From: a virus
Taxonomy: Duplodnaviria; Caudoviricetes
Reading direction: 5' to 3' (one strand)
Length of the DNA stretch: 64,000 nucleotides
Virus record (IMG/VR): IMGVR_UViG_3300035208_006553
Span: 32,001-96,000 of that record
Part shown: one piece after another, positions 23,591 through 36,660 of the stretch
Numbering within the stretch: the first letter of the stretch is position 1
Layout of the letters: each line of letters opens with the position of its first letter
Made by a program: the position numbers and the translations under genes
The notes under the pieces: generated by a model
The model's database searches: none
What the model was told of the DNA's origin: nothing
What the model saw: only the letters and a program-made list of their open reading frames with translations

Positions 23591-24424
23591 ATGTTAAAAA
23601 TTTATCAAAATTTTAAATGCAATAAAGAATTTTCTACAGATAAATTAAAACGAAGGTTTTGTAGTAGGCGTTGTTCAGGAGTATATTCAGCCGAAAAGAA
23701 AAAAGAATCTGGAAAGAAATACTATCATTCTATAGAAACGAAGCGAAAAATAAGTAAAGGTAACAGAGGTAAGCGAAAGCCTTCTCCATTTAAAGGGATG
23801 ACAGCTGCAAAGAGGTATGGAAGTGAAGAGAGGGCTCAAGAAATTCAAAATAGAAGAAGATTGAAATTAATAGGAAAGAAACACACAGAAGAGCACAAAC
23901 AAAAAATAGGGAATGCAGGGAGGGGCAGGAAAAAGACAGTAGCAACTCGTTTAAGAATGAGTGAATCTCGTAAAGGAATGAAACAGCCAGAGTATGTTAA
24001 AAAGAAAATTTCTAAAACTGTTCGTTTAAATAAAATACAGCAATTAGAGAAGAATAGCCAAATATCAAAACCTAGTTATAATATTAGATCTTGTGAATTT
24101 TTTAAATATTTAGATATTTTATATAAAACAGAAGGAAGATATGCTATTTACGGAGGAGGAGAATATTTTATTAAAGAACTAGGTTATTTTCCTGATTATA
24201 TAAATTTTGATAAAAAATGGATTATTGAATGGGATGAACCTATGCATTTTACTAAGGAAGGTAATTTAAGAGAAAAAGATAAAGTTAGACAACAAGAGAT
24301 TCAAAAGATGTTTCCTGATTATAAATTTATAAGAATCAGGGCTACGTTGAATTTATATAGACTATTACAAAGGAATATGAAAAAATTAAAATTAGTTAAA
24401 CTTTCAAAAACAGGGTTTAATTAA
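23591..24424 (+). CDS. Free-standing homing endonuclease (NUMOD3 repeats plus Vsr/PD-(D/E)XK-like nuclease)
   Basis: FCSRRC; HSIETKRKISKG, HTEEHKQKIG; YFPD..IIEWDEPMH...KDKVRQ. Confidence 0.75.
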   Translation: MLKIYQNFKCNKEFSTDKLKRRFCSRRCSGVYSAEKKKESGKKYYHSIETKRKISKGNRGKRKPSPFKGMTAAKRYGSEERAQEIQNRRRLKLIGKKHTEEHKQKIGNAGRGRKKTVATRLRMSESRKGMKQPEYVKKKISKTVRLNKIQQLEKNSQISKPSYNIRSCEFFKYLDILYKTEGRYAIYGGGEYFIKELGYFPDYINFDKKWIIEWDEPMHFTKEGNLREKDKVRQQEIQKMFPDYKFIRIRATLNLYRLLQRNMKKLKLVKLSKTGFN

Positions 24425-25759
24425 TTGTATAAATCTCTACATATTAAAAATTTTCAGTCTCACGAAGATTCTCTGATTGAATTTGATCCTCAAGTTACTG
24501 CAATAGTCGGATTAAATAACTTTGGGAAAAGTGCAATATTAAAAGCTCTTCAAAAACTTGTAAGAAATGATCCTGAAGGAGTCAGTTTTATTAACGAGAA
24601 TGCAAATGAAACGTTTCTTACTCTCGAAACTGATTTAGGTAATATAAAAAGAGAGATTTATAGAAGTAAACCCAGTGGAAAATATGTTATTATAAATAAA
24701 GAAAATCCAGCTCAAGATTTAGAATTTGTTAATTTTTCTAAAACAGGCATTCCTCAAGAGGTGTTAAATATATTAGATGTTTCTTCAATTCAGCAATTTG
24801 GTACTGATGAGTTTGATCTAAACTTCCATGTTCAAAAAGACAATGATTTTTTAATCAGAGGTAAAGGGTTATCTTCTACTAGAAGTAAAGTATTAAGTAA
24901 AATTACTGGAGTAGACATTGTTCAAAAAGCTATTCAACTAGGTAGATTAAAAGAAAAAAGGTACGAACAAGAAATTGATAATATAAAAAAAGATCAGCAA
25001 AAGATTAAATTAGATTTAGAAAAATATAATAATGTTAATGAACTAGATGAGATTATAAAAAATAAGTTACAGCAAATTCAAAAATTGCAACAATTAGAAA
25101 CTGATAAAGTTTTTTATAGTGGATCCTTAAGTTCATTACAAAGTATTGTTGAAAAAGCGACTAAATTAAAGAATTTATTAAAAGATTCAATTTTACAATT
25201 TGCTATTAATGATTTATTAGTTTTACGAAACAAAATAGATAATCTTATAAAGTTACAAAAAGTAAGGTATAGAATTAACAAGTTGAATCAATTTTTAATA
25301 ATGTCAGCTGTAGAGTTTAATGTTGATAGATTACAAATTTTACAAACGTTATTTAATAAAGTTGTAAAGATACAAACATTAAATAATAAAATTTTACAGT
25401 TGGATAAAGTAATTAAAATAAGCACTATTAATTATGATATAAGTACTTTTCAGCATCTTAAATATGCTAAAGAAAAATTACAGCAATTTAAAATATGTAC
25501 TCAGAAAATTTCTAAATTAAACAATGTTACTAAAATTGAATTACCTAATTTAGGAAGTGTTCAAGAGTGTAAAAAGACACTACAAAATTATAAAAATATA
25601 CAACAACAAATGTTATTACTTACTACTTTTTTGTATAATAAAGAACAAGAGGTACAGCAATTATGTGAGATTTTTAATGAACAAGAGCAAGAATTAATTA
25701 GTTATAAAAAAGAACTTAAAATATGCCCTACTTGCGGCGAATTTTTTAAGGAGAATTAA
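24425..25759 (+). CDS. SbcC/Rad50 ATPase, N-terminal half ending at the zinc hook
   Basis: IKNFQSH, Walker A GLNNFGKS, Q-loop, coiled coil, terminal CPTCG. Confidence 0.85.
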   Translation: MYKSLHIKNFQSHEDSLIEFDPQVTAIVGLNNFGKSAILKALQKLVRNDPEGVSFINENANETFLTLETDLGNIKREIYRSKPSGKYVIINKENPAQDLEFVNFSKTGIPQEVLNILDVSSIQQFGTDEFDLNFHVQKDNDFLIRGKGLSSTRSKVLSKITGVDIVQKAIQLGRLKEKRYEQEIDNIKKDQQKIKLDLEKYNNVNELDEIIKNKLQQIQKLQQLETDKVFYSGSLSSLQSIVEKATKLKNLLKDSILQFAINDLLVLRNKIDNLIKLQKVRYRINKLNQFLIMSAVEFNVDRLQILQTLFNKVVKIQTLNNKILQLDKVIKISTINYDISTFQHLKYAKEKLQQFKICTQKISKLNNVTKIELPNLGSVQECKKTLQNYKNIQQQMLLLTTFLYNKEQEVQQLCEIFNEQEQELISYKKELKICPTCGEFFKEN

Positions 25760-25760
25760 A

Positions 25761-26617
25761 ATGGTTTTATATAAGAAAACAGAAAACAATGAATATATTA
25801 CAATTGACGTACAAACTTTAGGTATAGTAAATAACAAAAATTCAGTAGTTGTATTTACTGTAGGAAATGAAGATTATTACCCATCCCAGAAAGATATGGA
25901 AGAAATTAAAAGTTTTGTAGATCAAGAGTCTGTTTTTAAGAGTAGTGAAGTATTAATATTACCTTTCTATGTTAAAATAACAGATATAACCTTGGATAGT
26001 GACAAAAATTATTTATTAGTAGTAAATATACCTTTTCATTTTAGTAAAGCTGATGAGGTAAAGGTAGAGAAAGAAATTACAGAAAGTTTACAAAGTCACT
26101 CTAATATTAAAGTTAAAGTACTTCGTGAAGATCTTAACATTACAGTTCAAGAAGCTAGTCTTAAAAGTAAGTTTCCTCCTTTAACTCAGCAAATGGTTGA
26201 ACATATTGATGGAACACCTACTTTGGATTACGCTATTCGTATTTTGAAAGTGTATAGAGAGAATTGTAATTGTAAGTGGTCTGATTCTTTAAATGAAGAA
26301 AACAAAAGTAGATTATTTGATATTATGAACGAGGCGCAAGATAAGAGAGCTGAGTTATTAGATAAAGCAATATCTGCATTAGAAGAACATTTAAAGTAGA
26401 AATGACAATGGAAGAGAAAAAGAAAGAGTATGTGAAATATTTGGAAAGGTTAATTAAATTATTACAATCAAATAAGATTGAATCAATAAGTTGTGATTCA
26501 CAACATTTTTACTTTCCTGAATTAGGAAGTATTGCGCACATGGCAGGAAAACCTTTTATATTTCATAAAGAAGAAATAATTCTTACAATTCATTACAATA
26601 CAGAAGAATTAAATTAA
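25761..26617 (+). other. Two hypothetical CDSs (25761-26399, 26402-26617)
   Basis: Tightly packed + strand ORFs. Confidence 0.5.
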
Positions 26618-27555
26618 TGATAATAGGATATGTAACAGATACCCATCTTCGATCAGAAACACCGGAAGGCAGAATAGATAATTTTAATAACTCTATTCTT
26701 ACTAAAATGGAAGAGGTGGGTCAGATTTTTAGAGAAGAAAAATGTGATATAATTCTTCATGGAGGTGATTGGGGTGATAGACCTGATATTCCTTACAGTG
26801 TTTATAATGAATTAGTAGGAGCTTTAAAAGCATGGAATAAACCCATTTACGGAATAATAGGAAGTCATGATTATTATGGGTATCAGATTAAAAGTTTGAA
26901 AAGGACTGCAGTAGGAGCTTTATACAAATCAGGTATAATTGAATTAGTTGGCAGCGAAGGTATGAAAGAATATATCGAATTAGATGATATTTGCATTTGT
27001 GGAACTCCTCATACGTACTGGTTAGATGAAGATTCTAAAAATTATTACAAAGAAAACTATTCTAGTAAAATTCAAATACAACTAACTCATGGAATGCTTC
27101 TAGAAAAGCCTGCAATCTTTCAACACACTTTACTTACTAATATAGAAACAAAATCTCAATATCTTTTAGGAGCTCATTACCATCCTGGCTGGAGTCAATT
27201 GTTTTTTAATTTAAAAGGAACAACATTTATTCATCCAGGAGGGTTAGCTAGATTAGACAATACAGGAAAAGTGAGAATTCCAAAAGCGGTAATTATTAAT
27301 TCAGTTACTCAAGAAGTCTATAGTAAAGAATTGCAAACAGCTATAGTACACCCATTTAAAGAAAAGGTAACAGATTCTAAAGAAGAAATAACAATGAATT
27401 TAGTAAAAAGAGCACTAGATTATCTTAAAGATACTCAAGTAAGTGTGATAGATATTAAACAACAACTTCCACTTATTGCAAATAAATTTAAGTATAATTC
27501 AGAAATCGTAGATTTAGCTTTTAATTTAATTGAAGAAGCAGAAAAGGAGAAATAA
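26617..27555 (+). CDS. SbcD/Mre11-like nuclease
   Basis: TDTH, GGDWGD, GSHD, THG and AHYH metallophosphoesterase motifs. Confidence 0.85.
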   Translation: MIIGYVTDTHLRSETPEGRIDNFNNSILTKMEEVGQIFREEKCDIILHGGDWGDRPDIPYSVYNELVGALKAWNKPIYGIIGSHDYYGYQIKSLKRTAVGALYKSGIIELVGSEGMKEYIELDDICICGTPHTYWLDEDSKNYYKENYSSKIQIQLTHGMLLEKPAIFQHTLLTNIETKSQYLLGAHYHPGWSQLFFNLKGTTFIHPGGLARLDNTGKVRIPKAVIINSVTQEVYSKELQTAIVHPFKEKVTDSKEEITMNLVKRALDYLKDTQVSVIDIKQQLPLIANKFKYNSEIVDLAFNLIEEAEKEK

Positions 27556-27558
27556 TAA

Positions 27559-28131
27559 ATGAGGAAGTGGGAAATATCAAAACAGTTTGAATTTTCATAC
27601 GGGCATAGAGTTTGGAGTCAGGAATTAAATAAAGAATTTAGTTTAGATAATAGCTGCTTTTGCCGGTTCATACACGGTCATAATTCAGTTCTTGTAGTTT
27701 ATCTTGAAGCAAGTAGTTTAATAAATGGAATGGTAACAGATTTTAAAAATTTAAATTGGTTAAAGAAATGGATTGACAATACTATTGATCACAAGTTTAT
27801 TATGGACATTAACGATCCGCTATTACCTCACGAAGTATCTGAACCTATAAATCGTTTTATAGGAAATTTTGGAATGAGTTTTGAAAAAGATGGTCTAATT
27901 AAACATGCAGAAGGATATGCTACAATCAATCCTAAATGTTACGAGGATTTTATTTTTCCCGTACGGGAGAAATTTGAAGGTATGGTATTTGTTTCTTTTG
28001 TACCCACTTCAGAAAATTTAAGTAAATGGATATTTGAAATAATTCAAGAAAAAATGTTAAAAATAGGTATAAAAGTATCTAAAGTAGATTTCTACGAGAC
28101 ACCTAAATCGAAATCTAGTTATTCAATTTAA
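27559..28131 (+). CDS. queD: 6-carboxy-tetrahydropterin synthase QueD
   Basis: F.YGHR, C..IHGH, GMVTDF, DHKF, PTSENL, ETP. Confidence 0.92.
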   Translation: MRKWEISKQFEFSYGHRVWSQELNKEFSLDNSCFCRFIHGHNSVLVVYLEASSLINGMVTDFKNLNWLKKWIDNTIDHKFIMDINDPLLPHEVSEPINRFIGNFGMSFEKDGLIKHAEGYATINPKCYEDFIFPVREKFEGMVFVSFVPTSENLSKWIFEIIQEKMLKIGIKVSKVDFYETPKSKSSYSI

Positions 28132-30829: not shown

Positions 30830-31501
30830 ATGAAAAAAGTAATAATTTTTACAGGGTTTGGAAGTTTTTTATTTGGATGTATTGTAGTTTTTTTATTTCA
30901 TTATTATTTACTAAAGGAACCACAACATACTAAAATAACTGAAACTATTTATAATAGTAATTTTGAAATAGGGATAGTTAAAGAAGATTTAGCTACTTAT
31001 GGTAGATCTTCAATTTTTATAAAAATTGTTACACCTGCTATTGAAAATGCTGCTGAAAAGTATAAAATACCTATAGGTTTGTTACATGCTATTTTTAGAG
31101 TTGAAAGTGATTATAGACCGCAGATTGACCATAACAAAGTAACTGTTCCCGTGCATGGAAATAATATTATTACAAATGCCATAGGAATGGGAGGTGTGTT
31201 ATGGGTGTATTGGGGTGATAGTTTGAAAGCACGGGGAATTGCAGAAACTGAAATGGATTTGTATTTTCCACAAATTGCAATAGAAGCAACAGCTTATATA
31301 TTAAAACAAATGATTGATACAGAAACAAAAGTCAATGGTAATTTAAACTCGTTTAATGTATTGTCTAATATAATTAAAAGATATTTTGGAGCTTACAGTC
31401 TAATGTATTTAGCAAAAATGGAAAAGTATACGAGTGATCTTTGGATGAAACGAATAGCGAAAGAAGTATTAGATTTAACAAAACAAAAATACAAAGAATG
31501 A
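30830..31501 (+). CDS. Lytic transglycosylase (SLT-like) with N-terminal membrane segment
   Basis: AAEKYKIP..LLHAIFRVES, AIGMG, hydrophobic N-terminus. Confidence 0.7.
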   Translation: MKKVIIFTGFGSFLFGCIVVFLFHYYLLKEPQHTKITETIYNSNFEIGIVKEDLATYGRSSIFIKIVTPAIENAAEKYKIPIGLLHAIFRVESDYRPQIDHNKVTVPVHGNNIITNAIGMGGVLWVYWGDSLKARGIAETEMDLYFPQIAIEATAYILKQMIDTETKVNGNLNSFNVLSNIIKRYFGAYSLMYLAKMEKYTSDLWMKRIAKEVLDLTKQKYKE

Positions 31502-31526: not shown

Positions 31527-31712
31527 ATGTATCAGTCTGATAATATAAAAAATAAATTTAGATTAAAAATATTTTTATTGTTGAAGAAAAATACAGATCA
31601 ATTTTTAGAAACAAAAAATGAATTAATAAAGAAAAATGTATTAAGACGGATAAACAAATTATTAGACTGTATTTATTTATTTATTAAATCTAAAAGAATT
31701 AGTTTAAGCTAA
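31527..31712 (+). CDS. Small basic protein, paralogue of 35128-35298
   Basis: KIFLLLKKNTD...LRRINKLLDCIYL versus KIFLLLKENTD...LRRINKLLTCIYL. Confidence 0.55.
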   Translation: MYQSDNIKNKFRLKIFLLLKKNTDQFLETKNELIKKNVLRRINKLLDCIYLFIKSKRISLS

Positions 31713-31724
31713 TTTGAGGATACA

Positions 31725-32664
31725 ATGAACCAAGAACTAAACAAAATAATAAGCGATTTAGAATATGCTGCTTATAATTTATGTAACGGCAAAAAAGATA
31801 CAGATTTACCGCCGGGAATAATTAACTCTACTGGCGCAGAGGATTCTCTTTTAATTGCTATACGTGATTTGAAAGAGATAACCAATCGCCACGAACCGCT
31901 AGTTAGCGGGAAACTTGCGGACTTTACAGTTTCTGAGCTAATGATAAAAATGAATGAAATTATCGGACAATATCCAGTGCAAGGTAATTATGCAGATGAT
32001 GGAAGATATACTTACCCCGGTAGATGGAATGCTTTACTTAAATACATAAAAGAAAAATGAAAACAGTGATTACTAAAAACGGAAATCTTGCTTGTAACAT
32101 TACAAGTGACGAATTGGAACAAATTAAAGAAGATTTGCGACCGACAACAAGACGCAATGATTCTCTATACGAAATATTTAAGCAAATAGCAGAAGAAGAT
32201 AAAAAGGTGAATCCAGAACTTTACGAAGATACTACCCGCTAATAATTACAACGAAACGATGTGACGGTTAATTTAACACGAACATAAAAGAAGAAATAAT
32301 GGATTTAAACCAACTTTATATTGAAAATTGTGAGGGCTTTGACGAGTATATGCCCGATGGTTCTTGCCGAAACGGATTGCGAATGACACTTGATGGATTT
32401 CAAAATGCACTAAGAAAATTGAGTGGTCAAATTGAACCGCAAGTTATAAAGCAAACGGCGGAAGCAATAAGAGAACTTTTACAGTTAGCACAAGCAACCC
32501 ATACTTATTGTGAGGATGGTTATTATAGTTGCCCGAAAGCTGAAGGTGGATGCTATAATGGTGCTTATAAAGAAGATGAATGTAATTGCGGTGCAGACAA
32601 ACAAAACGAACGAGTTACAGAATTAAAAACAATTTTAATGAATGATAGACGTTTGACGTTGTAG
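31725..32664 (+). other. Cassette-region CDSs 31725-32060, 32057-32242 and 32299-32664 (hypothetical)
   Basis: attC arms inside the coding regions (GTTAGCGGG 31902, GTTATAAAG 32443); stop at 32242 lies in CCCGCTAAT. Confidence 0.6.
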
Positions 32665-32999: not shown

Positions 33000-33197
33000 A
33001 TATAGCGGAAATGCGTTTAGCCGGACACGGGAATTTAATAAAATAAATTTGAGGTTGATATGAAAGATTACCAAGTAACAATAGACTTAGCAAAAAACAT
33101 TTGAACATGGAAGAGGTTGACCCCGATGTATGGGCTGCAGACGTGGCAAAGCTCATACGAATAATTGAAAGTATTCCAGCTGAAACGCTGATTAGGC
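33000..33197 (-). repeat. Degenerate attC-like site (both core triplets mutated)
   Basis: ATAGCGGAAATGCGTTTAGCCGGA ... TCCAGCTGAAACGCTGATTAGGC; closely resembles the 34394 site. Confidence 0.6.
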
Positions 33198-33421
33198 GAG
33201 GGCGTTCTTTGCCCGATGTGGCTTGCGGTAATTGTAAACAAATAGAGTTTTGGTATATGAAAATAAAAATCCAAGACGAATGGATGGACGGAGTAAGCGG
33301 GGAATATAATTTTGTTAAACAATACTGCGATGCAATTACTGACCACGACTGGAAAATAATAAAAGTTACACAGTATAGAGGCGACAAGGAAGAAGAAATT
33401 GAAAGCAAGCCATCTGCCTAA
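33060..33421 (+). pseudogene. Cassette gene with an apparent frameshift in A6
   Basis: GAGG RBS and ATG 33060; one extra A at 33092-33097 joins it to the 33101-33421 frame. Confidence 0.5.
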
Positions 33422-33606
33422 CGGCTGAGCCATAACCCGCCGAGCGGGAATTGAAAACTAAAATAGGAATTGAAAAATGAAAAACATTAACGATTGGATA
33501 ACAGAAAATTTTCTTGCAAGCGAGAGAGAAAATAAATTAAATGATCTTAAAGAAATAATTTTATCCGACCGAGCAAGCGAGGTCGGTGTTAATGGCATCG
33601 TTATGC
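33416..33606 (-). repeat. attC-like site
   Basis: GCCTAAC.GGCTGA.GCCATAACCCGCC pairs with GGTCGGTGTTAATGGC.ATC.GTTATGC. Confidence 0.8.
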
Positions 33607-33935
33607 CGAAAATTGGTGAACCGGCACTTAGTAACTGGACATTGGTTTGCAACTTGTTAGATGAGTTTCTGCAAGCTAATCGCCACGAAGTTTTTGTTAT
33701 AGCGAGTGAGCATACCGAAGGTAGCTCTGCGAACGGTGCGGTTGCGGACGTACAGGAGTTGTTAAGGGCAATAAGAGATTTAGACCAAAGGGAAAGGTTG
33801 GTTCTCACTATGTATTACAACGAAAAATTAACGTTAAAAGAAATTGCATCTATCTTTGATTGGACGATTGACGCAACACAAAAACAGTTTGAAAATATTA
33901 TAAACAAACTAAAGATAGCAACCGCATCGCTATAA
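33477..33935 (+). CDS. Cassette protein with C-terminal sigma70 region-4 HTH
   Basis: AIRDLDQRERLVLTMYYNEKLTLKEIASIF; contains two attC arms (33600, 33696). Confidence 0.75.
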   Translation: MKNINDWITENFLASERENKLNDLKEIILSDRASEVGVNGIVMPKIGEPALSNWTLVCNLLDEFLQANRHEVFVIASEHTEGSSANGAVADVQELLRAIRDLDQRERLVLTMYYNEKLTLKEIASIFDWTIDATQKQFENIINKLKIATASL

Positions 33936-34060
33936 CGTAGTTGCGGCTAAACTGCACCGACATAGGAAAAAATAATTAAATGAATTATAAATTCACGCAT
34001 ATCATCAAATGCGAAAATCTAAGACACCGTAAGGTGTCAGATTTGAGCCGCTGGTTATGT
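33930..34060 (-). repeat. attC-like site
   Basis: ATAAC.GTAGTT.GCGGCTAAACTGCACC pairs with GGTG(T)CAG(A)TTT(G)AGCCGC.TG.GTTAT. Confidence 0.88.
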
Positions 34061-34070
34061 GGAAAATTTT

Positions 34071-34153
34071 GGAAGGTTGCGAGCAATGGCGCTCAAGCGG
34101 TCTTGAAAACCGTGCTATCGGCAACGATAAGGGTTCGATTCCTTAACCTTCCG
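34071..34153 (+). tRNA. tRNA-Ser (anticodon TGA)
   Basis: Acceptor GGAAGGT/ACCTTCC, anticodon arm GCGGT-CTTGAAA-ACCGT, long variable arm, GGTTCGATTCC; no encoded CCA. Confidence 0.85.
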
Positions 34154-34156
34154 CTA

Positions 34157-34285
34157 GGTCGAGTTCGATTCTCGATGGGTTACTGACATGCTGGTGCGAA
34201 TGGAGTTAGGTTCGATTCCTAATGATTACGGTCTTAGAAATAAGATAACTCTGAGAGCTGAGTATGACAGCCGGGAAAGACCGGC
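34157..34285 (+). ncRNA. Structured inter-tRNA element with two T-arm-like hairpins and a terminal hairpin
   Basis: TCGAG-TTCGATT-CTCGA, TTAGG-TTCGATT-CCTAA, GCCGG-GAAAGA-CCGGC. Confidence 0.45.
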
Positions 34286-34289
34286 GAAT

Positions 34290-34372
34290 GGAAGATTGGC
34301 AGAGTGGTAATGCAACGGCTTGCTAAGCCGCACAACAGAAATGTTGCAGAGGTTCGATCCCTCTATCTTCCG
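34290..34372 (+). tRNA. tRNA-Ser (anticodon GCT)
   Basis: Acceptor GGAAGAT/ATCTTCC, TGGCAGAGTGG D arm, CGGC-TTGCTAA-GCCG, long variable arm, GGTTCGATCC. Confidence 0.9.
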
Positions 34373-34393
34373 CAAGATGCGAAAAATTTTTCC

Positions 34394-34598
34394 ACATAAC
34401 GGAGTTGCCCATAAGCGGACACGGAAATTTAATAAATAAATTTGAGGTTACAAATGCAAGACGAAAAATTAAACGAAATTAAAAGACGGATAGATGTTAC
34501 TTACCAGGGGGACAGAAATCTTGCCGTAATGTTACAAGATGTTATTTATCTCTATAAAAAACTGGAAGAAAGTGTTCCGCTTGATGGGCTGGTTATGA
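34394..34598 (-). repeat. attC-like site
   Basis: CATAAC.GGAGTT.GCCCATAAGCGGACAC pairs with GTG(T)TCCGCTT(G)ATGGGC.TG.GTTATG. Confidence 0.88.
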
Positions 34599-34747
34599 CG
34601 CAAGCCGACTACTTAAAAGAAATTGAGACAGCCATAGAAAACACAGTTAATGAATATGACCATATATTAAATATGAAGCGATACCCGCAAGTTGAAGATA
34701 TGGAAAAGTGGATTAGGAATTTGAGAGAAGCCATACAACCATTTTAG
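34454..34747 (+). CDS. Cassette hypothetical protein
   Basis: GAGG RBS and ATG inside the attC loop. Confidence 0.6.
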   Translation: MQDEKLNEIKRRIDVTYQGDRNLAVMLQDVIYLYKKLEESVPLDGLVMTQADYLKEIETAIENTVNEYDHILNMKRYPQVEDMEKWIRNLREAIQPF

Positions 34748-34755
34748 GCTTGTCG

Positions 34756-34887
34756 GTATAACGGATCAGCGACAACCCGCAAGCGGTAGTTTAATAAAAA
34801 CTAAATTGATAAAGGAATGATATATGAAAACAAAGAAAAATAAACCGACAAGCGATAGCGCAGTCGGCGTTGGTTGCGTAGTTAGTT
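34756..34887 (-). repeat. attC-like site
   Basis: TATAAC.GGATCA.GCGACAACCCG pairs with CGG(C)GTT(G)GTTGC.GTA.GTTAG. Confidence 0.78.
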
Positions 34888-35099
34888 TGCCGAACGAAAT
34901 TTTGATAGAGGTTGAAGGCAGACAAAAAAGAGTTTTAACGAAAGATTATGTAACCGCAAAGACTAAACAATTGCAAGAATTTGGTTACACAAAATTAACA
35001 GAAGAAGAAGTTTCTTCTGAATTACAAAATATATTAAGCAATAAACCGCTTAATGTTATTGGGATGTTTATGAAAGATGACATCGTGAGGTCAAACTAA
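34824..35099 (+). CDS. Cassette hypothetical protein
   Basis: Start in the attC loop; stop TAA is the core of the next site. Confidence 0.65.
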   Translation: MKTKKNKPTSDSAVGVGCVVSLPNEILIEVEGRQKRVLTKDYVTAKTKQLQEFGYTKLTEEEVSSELQNILSNKPLNVIGMFMKDDIVRSN

Positions 35100-35304
35100 C
35101 GTAGTTGAAACTAAAGCGTGAGCGAACATGGAAGACCAATTGAGAGTAAAGATATTTTTATTGTTGAAGGAAAATACGGATTTGTTCTTAACAACAAATA
35201 ATAAATTAATAAGAAGAAACTCATTGAGGCGAATAAACAAATTATTGACCTGTATTTATCTATTGAACTTAAAAGAGCGAATCGCTTTGAGTTTTTAGTT
35301 ATAA
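35094..35304 (-). repeat. attC-like site with a whole ORF in its loop
   Basis: CTAAC.GTAGTTG.AAACTAAAGCG pairs with CGCTTT(G)AGTTT.TTA.GTTAT. Confidence 0.78.
35128..35298 (+). CDS. 56-aa protein inside an attC loop (not in ORF track)
   Basis: MEDQLRVKIFLLLKENTD...; paralogue at 31527. Confidence 0.55.
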   Translation: MEDQLRVKIFLLLKENTDLFLTTNNKLIRRNSLRRINKLLTCIYLLNLKERIALSF

Positions 35305-35329
35305 ATTTTTTGGCGGAAGGAGCAAGACA

Positions 35330-35515
35330 ATGAAAATTATATTAGTACCACATTGTAAAAAATGCCCTCACGGTGCGCAATGGAATTTAGAAGGAACTGA
35401 ATATATGTGTGGAAAGAAAACAAAAATTAATTCTGATAAAAATATACCGGAATGGTGCCCTTTGATGGAAGCAACGGAGTTCTTAAGAAAGGTTAATAGC
35501 CAAAAACAATTATAA
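35330..35515 (+). CDS. Small Cys-rich cassette protein
   Basis: C..CPH...C...IPEWCPL; AAGGAG RBS; stop in TTATAAC. Confidence 0.65.
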   Translation: MKIILVPHCKKCPHGAQWNLEGTEYMCGKKTKINSDKNIPEWCPLMEATEFLRKVNSQKQL

Positions 35516-35794
35516 CGTGGCGCGGGCTTACCCGTTTGCGGTGAATGAAAAACTAAATTAGGAGAAACAACAATGATAGGTTTTAACAGAGTAGCAAAAT
35601 TTGATGATGGCAGATTGATGTATAGAAATATAATAACTAACGACTATACAAGGCTCTCTTTTGTGTATAGGGACGACATTAAATATAAACCTTACCCAAC
35701 TATGCAAATAACTTGTACAGGGTGGAGTTTTAGCTGGTGGAGGTTTTGGGTATGGCACGAAAAGAAGCAAATCAGGCTGAAACGCTAGTTAGCC
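35510..35794 (-). repeat. attC-like site enclosing ORF 35573-35788
   Basis: TTATAAC.GTGGC.GCGGGCTTACCCGTTTGC pairs imperfectly with GCAAATCAGGCTGAAACGC.TA.GTTAGCC. Confidence 0.65.
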
Positions 35795-35945
35795 AAGCCG
35801 CTTCTCGGGCGGTGTTGCTTGCGGAAATGAGAGAAGGATTACGAATAGCAATGAATAATTGGAAACGCTGTTATTATGGATATGGGAAAGAAGTTATGAA
35901 AGAAACAAGCGAAGAAACTTTGGCTAATTTACATTTAGATGATGA

Positions 35946-36410
35946 GTGGAGTGGATTAAATTAAACAAAACACAAAGCGTGTTAATGAAAATGAGCGAAG
36001 GTAATCCCGGAGCTTTAACAACGATGATGCAAATAATGATGGAACACGATAATATTGATCCGCAGGCGATGATGGGTGGAATGGGTGTGATATTATTATT
36101 TGACACATTCCAAATTTATGGCTCATCAATTTATATTTTGTTCAACGACCAATGTAACAGGGATGTGAGGGAGTTATTGATGCTAATGAGAGCTACGCAA
36201 CTTGGGTTATTCAGTAGTCGCAACCTTAAACAGATTGCCGATGACCAAATGGGAAAACATTTATTAAGCAAAGAGCAGATGGATGAACTTGATAAAAAAG
36301 TATGTGAGCAATTAGAACAATTTACAACCAGAGAAGCGTGGGAGAACGCAAAGAAGCATCCGTATAACGGATCTCCGTTTGTGCCGGTTGCGACATTAAT
36401 TAAAAAATAG
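35946..36410 (+). CDS. Hypothetical phage protein
   Basis: MSEGNPGAL...IYGSSIYILFND.C; reads into a degenerate attC arm at 36362. Confidence 0.6.
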   Translation: MEWIKLNKTQSVLMKMSEGNPGALTTMMQIMMEHDNIDPQAMMGGMGVILLFDTFQIYGSSIYILFNDQCNRDVRELLMLMRATQLGLFSSRNLKQIADDQMGKHLLSKEQMDELDKKVCEQLEQFTTREAWENAKKHPYNGSPFVPVATLIKK

Positions 36411-36498
36411 ATTTGGAGAAACAAGATGGGAGAAAACGAAACTAAGAATTGCGAACAAACGATGTGTCACTTAAACAGCAGAGACAAAAGAGAAAATT

Positions 36499-36660
36499 AT
36501 GCAAAGTAAAATAAAAGATTTTTGTAAAAGACATAAACCAGCAAACAAGACAATGACTTATTTAGCACATCTTGAATGGGTAGAACGAAAAATAAAGCAA
36601 GGGCATCAACAGTATGAATGCCCCAAGTGTAGGAGGTGGTTATTTAAGTGTGAAATGTAA
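36499..36660 (+). CDS. Small zinc-finger-like protein (53 aa, not in ORF track)
   Basis: ...GHQQYECPKCRRW. Confidence 0.5.
   Translation: MQSKIKDFCKRHKPANKTMTYLAHLEWVERKIKQGHQQYECPKCRRWLFKCEM

Follow-up and report, generated by a model that had tools for sequence, protein, structure and literature searches.

A pair of tRNA-Ser genes as probable cargo of a hairpin-closed gene module in a phage

The locus described here raises the question whether RNA genes, and not only protein genes, can travel as the cargo of phage cassettes. The window, that is, the whole stretch of 64,000 nucleotides that was analysed, comprises positions 32,001 to 96,000 of the IMG/VR record IMGVR_UViG_3300035208_006553, a phage contig of 108 kb with 30% G+C and an estimated completeness of 61%. 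A sequence-only reading had taken two tRNA-Ser genes in this window for a tRNA cassette of the integron type. Part of this claim stands, as the tRNA unit has the same ends as the neighbouring protein units and neighbours are exchanged at the cores; an integron, however, was not shown. We suggest, with a probability of roughly 60%, that the module which holds the tRNA-Ser pair belongs to a family of hairpin-closed phage gene modules and that the pair is its cargo. As a row of cassettes the array has good support, and support for the tRNA unit as a cassette is reasonable. The mobility of the tRNA unit itself appears, from sequence comparison, only partly shown.

The tRNA genes and the arms that enclose them

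ARAGORN finds only two tRNA genes on the whole 108-kb contig, and these are the two serine tRNA genes, with anticodons UGA and GCU, that had been proposed (Table 1). Both fold into a cloverleaf with a serine anticodon, a long variable arm and G73, and CCA is encoded in neither gene. On Rfam, tRNA-Ser(UGA) is recognized by the tRNA-Sec model only, with 38 bits, which is below the cut-off of that model, and its T-arm is irregular. Since this gene is identical on one foreign contig and 97.6% identical on another, it is not a decaying pseudogene. We take both tRNA genes as functional; their expression is predicted. The protein collection holds no called gene over the tRNA unit of this record, in agreement with the initial view that there is no credible protein gene between the cores. 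The spacer between the tRNA genes had been called structured. Its hairpins are indeed present, and the T-arm-like ones might be tRNA remnants, but the RNA fold is weak (z-score -1.5, no better than shuffles); the spacer matches no Rfam family. It is missing between the two tRNAs in two other contigs (X5 and L025) and occurs alone on another X5 contig.

The serine codons of the phage are mostly TCT (36%), AGT (33%) and TCA (20%), together 89%. Anticodons UGA and GCU cover TCN, given the usual U34 modification, and AGY.

The reported match between the cores at 34054 and 34400 is real, yet the cores are reverse complements and not direct repeats. They form the two arms of a 17-bp inverted repeat: nine base pairs starting from GTTA, a bulged T in the right arm, then eight further base pairs. 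All 17 of 17 pairs are Watson-Crick; without the gap the match is 16 of 17. This is the geometry of a whole family of modules in which the body starts with GTTA and ends with TAAC, and the first 17 nt pair with the last 18 nt (9 bp, one bulged nucleotide, 8 bp). The tRNA unit fits this family also in being preceded by a leader of the TAAC...GTTA type. Among the 4512 GTTA..TAAC pairs on the contig its closure ranks third, and with the bulged T taken into account its 17/17 pairing is the best on the contig. It is hardly credible that a chance inverted repeat or an assembly chimera has formed around two tRNA genes. Shuffled AT-rich DNA does yield some matches of 15 out of 17, but here all 17 positions pair, the bulge has exactly the position typical of the family, the rank is high and four sister modules lie beside the unit. 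A chimera is further contradicted by independent assemblies which span the junctions. Single assembled pieces from two studies run from the sigma gene across the tRNA unit into the next leader; the samples are possibly the source of the window DNA.

The left limit first given to the unit is the core which ends the sigma-factor module. Between this core and the left arm lies a leader hairpin, whose pairing including the cores spans 33933-34059 and whose DNA fold has a z-score of -3.6. Its loop contains an ATG (33980) with a ribosome-binding-site-like sequence, and the GTT of the following core lies in another reading frame. This start looks vestigial. In two other loci (L017 and L018) a leader with an in-frame start stands behind the same sigma gene, and next comes a protein body, with no tRNAs; the arms of that leader are homologous to those of 33937-34053 and carry a compensatory change from G-C to T-A. 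We read the difference as a protein body that was replaced by tRNAs, the leader being now useless. The first bases of tRNA-Ser(UGA), GGAAG, occupy the position of a conserved GG(A/G)A that follows the left arm in protein modules.

Folded as RNA, the tRNA unit has a terminal stem which closes over both cloverleaves (z-score -3.5). As the RNA fold closes on the 17-bp stem, the stem may also help processing. Since the arms are perfectly preserved around a cargo that encodes no protein, selection acts on their DNA or RNA structure and not on a protein sequence; the pairing could operate at the RNA level instead of the DNA level.

Table 1. Features of the tRNA unit and of the surrounding modules (window coordinates)
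Feature	Position	Strand	Remarks
Sister module, sigma-factor C-terminal body	33696..33936	+	Own inverted repeat; rank 5 of 4512; same arms enclose other cargo in L017
xxTAAC core ending the sigma-factor module	33930..33936	+	Stop TAA 33933-33935; similarity to L017/L018 passes through
Leader hairpin, TAAC...GTTA type	33937..34053	+	Arms adjoin both cores; rank 7 of 870 duplexes
Left arm	34054..34070	+	GTTA + 5 nt (9 bp), then 8 nt; abuts 5' end of tRNA-Ser(UGA)
tRNA-Ser(UGA)	34071..34154	+	ARAGORN (tga); identical in X5, 97.6% in L026
Spacer	34155..34289	+	135 nt; two T-arm-like hairpins and a small GC hairpin
tRNA-Ser(GCU)	34290..34373	+	ARAGORN (gct); Rfam tRNA model 57.3 bits (cut-off 29)
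Right arm	34383..34400	+	8 nt, bulged T (34391), 5 nt + TAAC
Next leader hairpin, TAAC...GTTATG	34397..34597	+	RBS, ATG and first ~50 codons of the 101-aa gene; rank 1 of 870
Sister module, body of 101-aa gene	34592..34762	+	Rank 6 of 4512; 99% identical in three neighbourhoods
Sister module, body of 91-aa gene	34881..35100	+	Rank 1 of 4512
Sister module with 61-aa gene	35298..35516	+	Rank 18 of 4512; left arm very abundant in metagenomes

The module array and the exchange of its parts

The tRNA unit is one of five consecutive, non-overlapping units between 33696 and 35516, which take ranks 1, 3, 5, 6 and 18 of the 4512 GTTA..TAAC pairs. Four of the six strongest closures of this type and three of the seven strongest of the 870 TAAC..GTTA pairs fall within 33.4-35.1 kb. 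The TAAC...GTTA hairpins between the units, three of which have ranks 1, 4 and 7, follow a common plan: next to the paired core comes an asymmetric unpaired stretch, then a box of 6 bp and, beyond a bulge, another 6 bp; in the loop of 80-150 nt the next gene begins, with its ribosome site and its first ~50 codons. The array has 35-37% G+C compared with 30% in the rest of the phage, and phages rich in modules have 35-38%.

Several other details of this region were recorded. An 80-nt junction at 35268-35351, made up of the left arm of the unit 35298-35516 and the RBS region, reaches a depth of 578 in a landfill run, where its neighbours have about 33; the junction is also found in L007 and L018 and is a very common arm in that community. 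The small open reading frames at 31527-31712 and 35128-35298 (61 and 56 aa) are paralogous with 77% DNA identity, and the second lies entirely within a TAAC...GTTA hairpin that is 95% identical in L019. At 33020-33062 there is a conserved leader, about 89% like 34415-34456, whose open reading frame from 33060 meets a TGA after 14 codons. The long open reading frame 33101-33421 runs on in another frame; a frameshift, an interrupted gene or a mistake of assembly may be the cause, and 2-nt insertions at 33030/33031 are seen in metagenome contigs. Just upstream of the array, a strong TAAC...GTTA pairing (31132-31204, rank 2 of 870) lies within the gene of an SLT lytic transglycosylase (30830-31501). 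Further upstream, 23591-28131 encodes a NUMOD3 homing-endonuclease-like gene, an exonuclease, a metallophosphoesterase and a QueD-like gene, which together with the QueF/FolE2 genes seen in the sequence-only reading point to 7-deazaguanine DNA modification.

Neighbouring modules of the array recur elsewhere with 92-99% identity and with different neighbours, and the similarity stops at the cores. The 97-aa product of 34454-34747 is identical in at least three different neighbourhoods. At the DNA level, 34396-34762 is 99% identical from one TAAC core to the next, with unrelated flanks. In four loci (L013-L016) only the leader 34396-34603, up to just past the GTTATG core, is in common and another body follows, which gives a chimeric protein; the leader stem next to the core shows compensatory changes. 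The leaders 33413-33615 and 35096-35301 also occur alone in other contigs. Several contigs keep the hairpin arms and have different loop contents, and in L017 a different 120-aa protein stands between the arms that here enclose the sigma-factor body. At every core, the assemblies of two metagenomes fall into separate pieces. The breakpoints of similarity are found at TAAC cores (33413/33424, 34396, 34762 and 35096), at GTTA cores (33615, 34603 and 35301) and inside the arms. Seven of 16 distinct breakpoints lie at most 2 nt from a core word, against 13.5% expected (P=0.003), although the mean distance of the breakpoints to any TAAC/GTTA word is not significant (P=0.07). A further joint, 33471>34395, was set aside as it comprises only 22 matching letters.

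The modules are not confined to this phage. Dozens more with covarying stems are present in unrelated phages of about 40 kb from landfill, groundwater and digester metagenomes. In the loci fetched there are 62 non-redundant body closures of the 9+1+8 type, 27 of which are perfect besides the tRNA unit. The bulged base is a T in 36 of 48 bulged closures. Beyond the core of 4-6 nt all stems are different, and about 1050 stem positions contain 13 G.T pairs compared with 5 A.C. All modules have a single orientation relative to the genes. Their density reaches 8-10 per 5 kb in small contigs and is also high in a 37-kb phage with terminal repeats; there the stretch between the replication genes and the terminase is filled by modules, and the cargo includes methyltransferases. 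The module-rich phages have almost no proteins in common with the window phage; thus the array of five modules in the window looks imported.

Some observations on related contigs may be added. In G003 a gene for an SLT transglycosylase, 47% identical, lies about 3 kb upstream of the array; the gene upstream of the arrays in both G000 (the 108-kb contig) and G003 had been considered as a recombinase and was identified as this transglycosylase. Within GTDB genomes a common arm word matches a 31.5-kb scaffold (G005:C14, with L063/L064) and an unrelated Lachnospiraceae contig; this search turned up no host chromosome. The scaffold, binned to a Thermoplasmata MAG, has GTTA/TAAC modules of the bacterial-phage type at one end and is probably a mis-binned phage contig. 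Another phage-like contig (L003:2708-4960, also L004 and L006) carries genes with Csf3, RAMP (faint) and PAPS-reductase matches, maybe a type IV CRISPR-Cas-like cluster, which adjoins a copy of the 97-aa cassette gene.

The tRNA genes themselves are also found elsewhere. In L026, a tRNA-Ser(UGA) follows a methyltransferase module with 19-nt arms, 9 nt and a GTTA-type left arm that differs from that of the window; the likeness to the window sets in about 10 nt ahead of the tRNA gene, inside which the contig stops. The methyltransferase is present on that contig only. On the X5 contig, unrelated AT-rich DNA lies upstream of tRNA-Ser(UGA) and a tRNA-Ser(GCU)-like gene follows 3 nt further on, a pair with neither arms nor spacer. 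The same tandem, 1 nt apart and again with no arms, stands beside an ordinary integrase on a contig of high G+C (L025). A contig of low depth (X4, 2.5) agrees with 34205-34401, the right arm included, and then departs from the window. The tRNA-Ser(GCU) of G004 is about 80% identical to that of the window, with an identical stretch of 23 nt in the T-arm and 3' acceptor. G004 is a complete phage genome (IMG/VR, 92 kb) whose 34 tRNA genes mostly lie in a single cluster at about 58.7-65.3 kb. The tandem Ser(UGA)-Ser(GCU) is, as these copies suggest, an old and widespread unit that would have been boxed by arms and given a spacer in this lineage.

It had been proposed to look for the unit with the same boundaries among different neighbours. 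X4 keeps the right boundary; the left one is not kept in L026 and X5, where similarity begins only at the 5' end of the tRNA or shortly before it. No whole tRNA unit with arms and cargo was found among different neighbours in these copies, and neither an empty site nor a circular form was seen. A blastn search of 33000-36500 against sequenced phages gave tRNA matches only. Exact-word scans gave no match for tRNA-Ser(UGA) in viral_contigs and genome_contigs, for the variable arm of tRNA-Ser(GCU) in metagenome_contigs or for the loop of the leader hairpin in viral_contigs. The sigma factor and a 1386-aa protein have no close relatives in IMG/VR.

Could the locus instead be an ordinary phage tRNA cluster, in which the 17-bp stem is a signal for RNA processing or stabilization? 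The stems of the neighbours would then also be RNA elements, and the mosaic boundaries would arise as a side effect of homologous recombination where short sequences are most conserved. Stems that flank rRNAs are cut by RNase III. The RNA fold which closes on the stem with both tRNAs folded inside would agree with this explanation, as would the single orientation of the modules and a common pool of phage and bacterial tRNAs, with tandem pairs lacking arms in L025 and X5 and kin of tRNA-Ser(GCU) in the 34-tRNA phage. A PD-(D/E)XK nuclease encoded close to the array of G002 is consistent with a recombination system of phages. In protein modules, however, the left arm lies about 50 codons inside the open reading frame, so that cleavage would cut the mRNA; G.U pairs are nearly absent, which is unusual for RNA helices; and loop contents are swapped between identical arms, with modules 99% identical among unrelated neighbours. 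In our view this explanation is unlikely. The tRNA unit shares the geometry of neighbouring modules that recur elsewhere, and we therefore regard the tRNA pair as the probable cargo of a cassette-like module.

Comparison with integrons and other known systems

An attC site has two paired boxes with a roughly symmetric spacer of 5-6 nt and extrahelical bases in the inner box, and measures about 57-141 nt. Integron cassettes are bounded at the G|TT of the second core only. If the locus were a true integron cassette within a CALIN, the TAAC...GTTA hairpins would be attC sites acting as folded single strands, an integron-type or Xer-like recombinase would come from the host or from the missing part of the phage, and the tRNA pair would be a cassette with no open reading frame. 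There are many likenesses to integron cassettes and to the CALINs of phages (Qi et al. 2023, PMC9892861): a row of small genes on the same strand, imperfect hairpins with inverted cores of the AAC/GTT type that resemble the inverse core and core of attC, methyltransferases among the cargo, a phage that encodes no integrase, and a stop codon, which often lies in the first (TAAC) core. In the leader hairpins a paired core is followed by an unpaired spacer and by a second paired box that contains a bulged base, and the loop is long and variable. Unit ends are complementary as a circular intermediate would predict. Clusters of attC sites lacking an integrase, some with methyltransferases as cargo, exist in virulent phages and are functional with IntI1 (PMC9892861).

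The differences are nevertheless substantial. No PF00589 tyrosine recombinase was found in five module-bearing records (G000, G001, G002, G003 and the scaffold G005:C14), four of which are incomplete and one of which has terminal repeats. Paired core, second box and bulge are present at the sites of the window, but the unpaired spacer is asymmetric (4-6 nt versus 0-2 nt) and the sites span 122-200 nt. They enclose the start of the next gene, which begins within the supposed attC loop and crosses the core in frame. A 17-bp stem with a single bulge closes each gene body separately, and attC has no counterpart of this stem. Breakpoints occur at both TAAC and GTTA cores and at the inner arm edges, not only at G|TT, and the cargo is two tRNA genes. 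Our search of the full-text literature found no report of tRNA genes as integron-cassette cargo, and the paper on phage CALINs does not mention tRNA (PMC9892861). Integrons and phage attC clusters are closest in logic; of their defining features three fail or are unclear, namely the integrase, a crossover at one point only and the geometry of attC. A true integron cassette is in our view quite improbable.

Closest in biology are the PeSL cassettes of T4-type phages (PMC2839356, PMC4122927). In these, too, short conserved motifs flank ORFans in a hypervariable region of a lytic-type phage, and modules are shuffled at the motifs with no dedicated recombinase. PeSLs, however, are direct repeats made of a sigma-70 promoter and a local terminator hairpin, whereas the repeats of the window are inverted, long-range and covarying and have only 4-6 nt in common. 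Promoters of the PeSL type are not enriched in the array, with 6 promoter-like sites against 11.5 +/- 3.8 in shuffles; 5 terminator-like sites were found against 2.3 in shuffles, none of them at the junction motif. The word tRNA is absent from the main PeSL paper (PMC2839356).

With the phage tRNA clusters of T4, T5 and G004 the locus has in common that CCA is not encoded, that possible tRNA remnants lie between the genes and that codon supply or escape from host tRNA nucleases is the likely function (PMC10264068, PMC11555353). It differs in that there are only two tRNAs in 108 kb, both for serine and boxed by gene-module arms. MITE-like elements are likewise short non-autonomous units (here 347 bp) with terminal inverted repeats and no transposase. 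The arms in the window, in contrast, differ from module to module beyond the 4-6-nt core and covary, most units are parts of genes, and no target-site duplication was found in the flanks.

Proposed course of exchange and its meaning

We prefer a reading in which the modules are exchanged by structure-guided or short-homology recombination and not by a classical integron integrase. Related and unrelated phages would swap pieces by recombination at the 4-6-nt cores and the conserved arms. Through such an exchange the tRNA pair may have replaced a protein body, the Ser(UGA)-Ser(GCU) tandem then being the older unit, as it exists elsewhere with no arms. The pair would be transcribed together with its neighbours, the 17-bp stem would bring the two flanks together, and host enzymes would mature the tRNAs and add CCA. 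About 95% of the serine codons of the phage could be read by the mature pair. A role of the pair against nucleases is possible and a reasonable idea from the literature (PMC10264068, PMC11555353), by analogy with known cases; VapC toxins that cut Ser(NGA) tRNAs are known (PMC10264068).

More tentatively, and with less than even confidence, we consider that the phages have a cassette system of their own. The stems with GTTA/TAAC cores would be sockets, and the content of the loop (tRNA genes in the present case, otherwise a gene body or an N-terminal leader) would be swapped between co-infecting phages by the general recombination machinery or by a novel enzyme, with no integron integrase involved. 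If this is true, the tRNA cargo would mean that the stems act as signals at the nucleic-acid level, whether or not protein is encoded.

What is new is the tRNA cargo in GTTA/TAAC modules, which otherwise carry genes for small proteins: on our reading, RNA genes can also ride in phage cassettes. Phage tRNAs are now regarded as tools against host defences that cut tRNAs and as a codon supply, and how they are gained and lost is poorly understood. Since a tRNA pair occupies the same frame as mobile methyltransferases, a sigma factor and ORFans, phages may have a ready means of exchanging RNA genes. The idea of 'linker' sequences in modular phage evolution is an old one, said to go back to Botstein. 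A precise 9+1+8 stem that is common to very different phages could make this idea directly testable.
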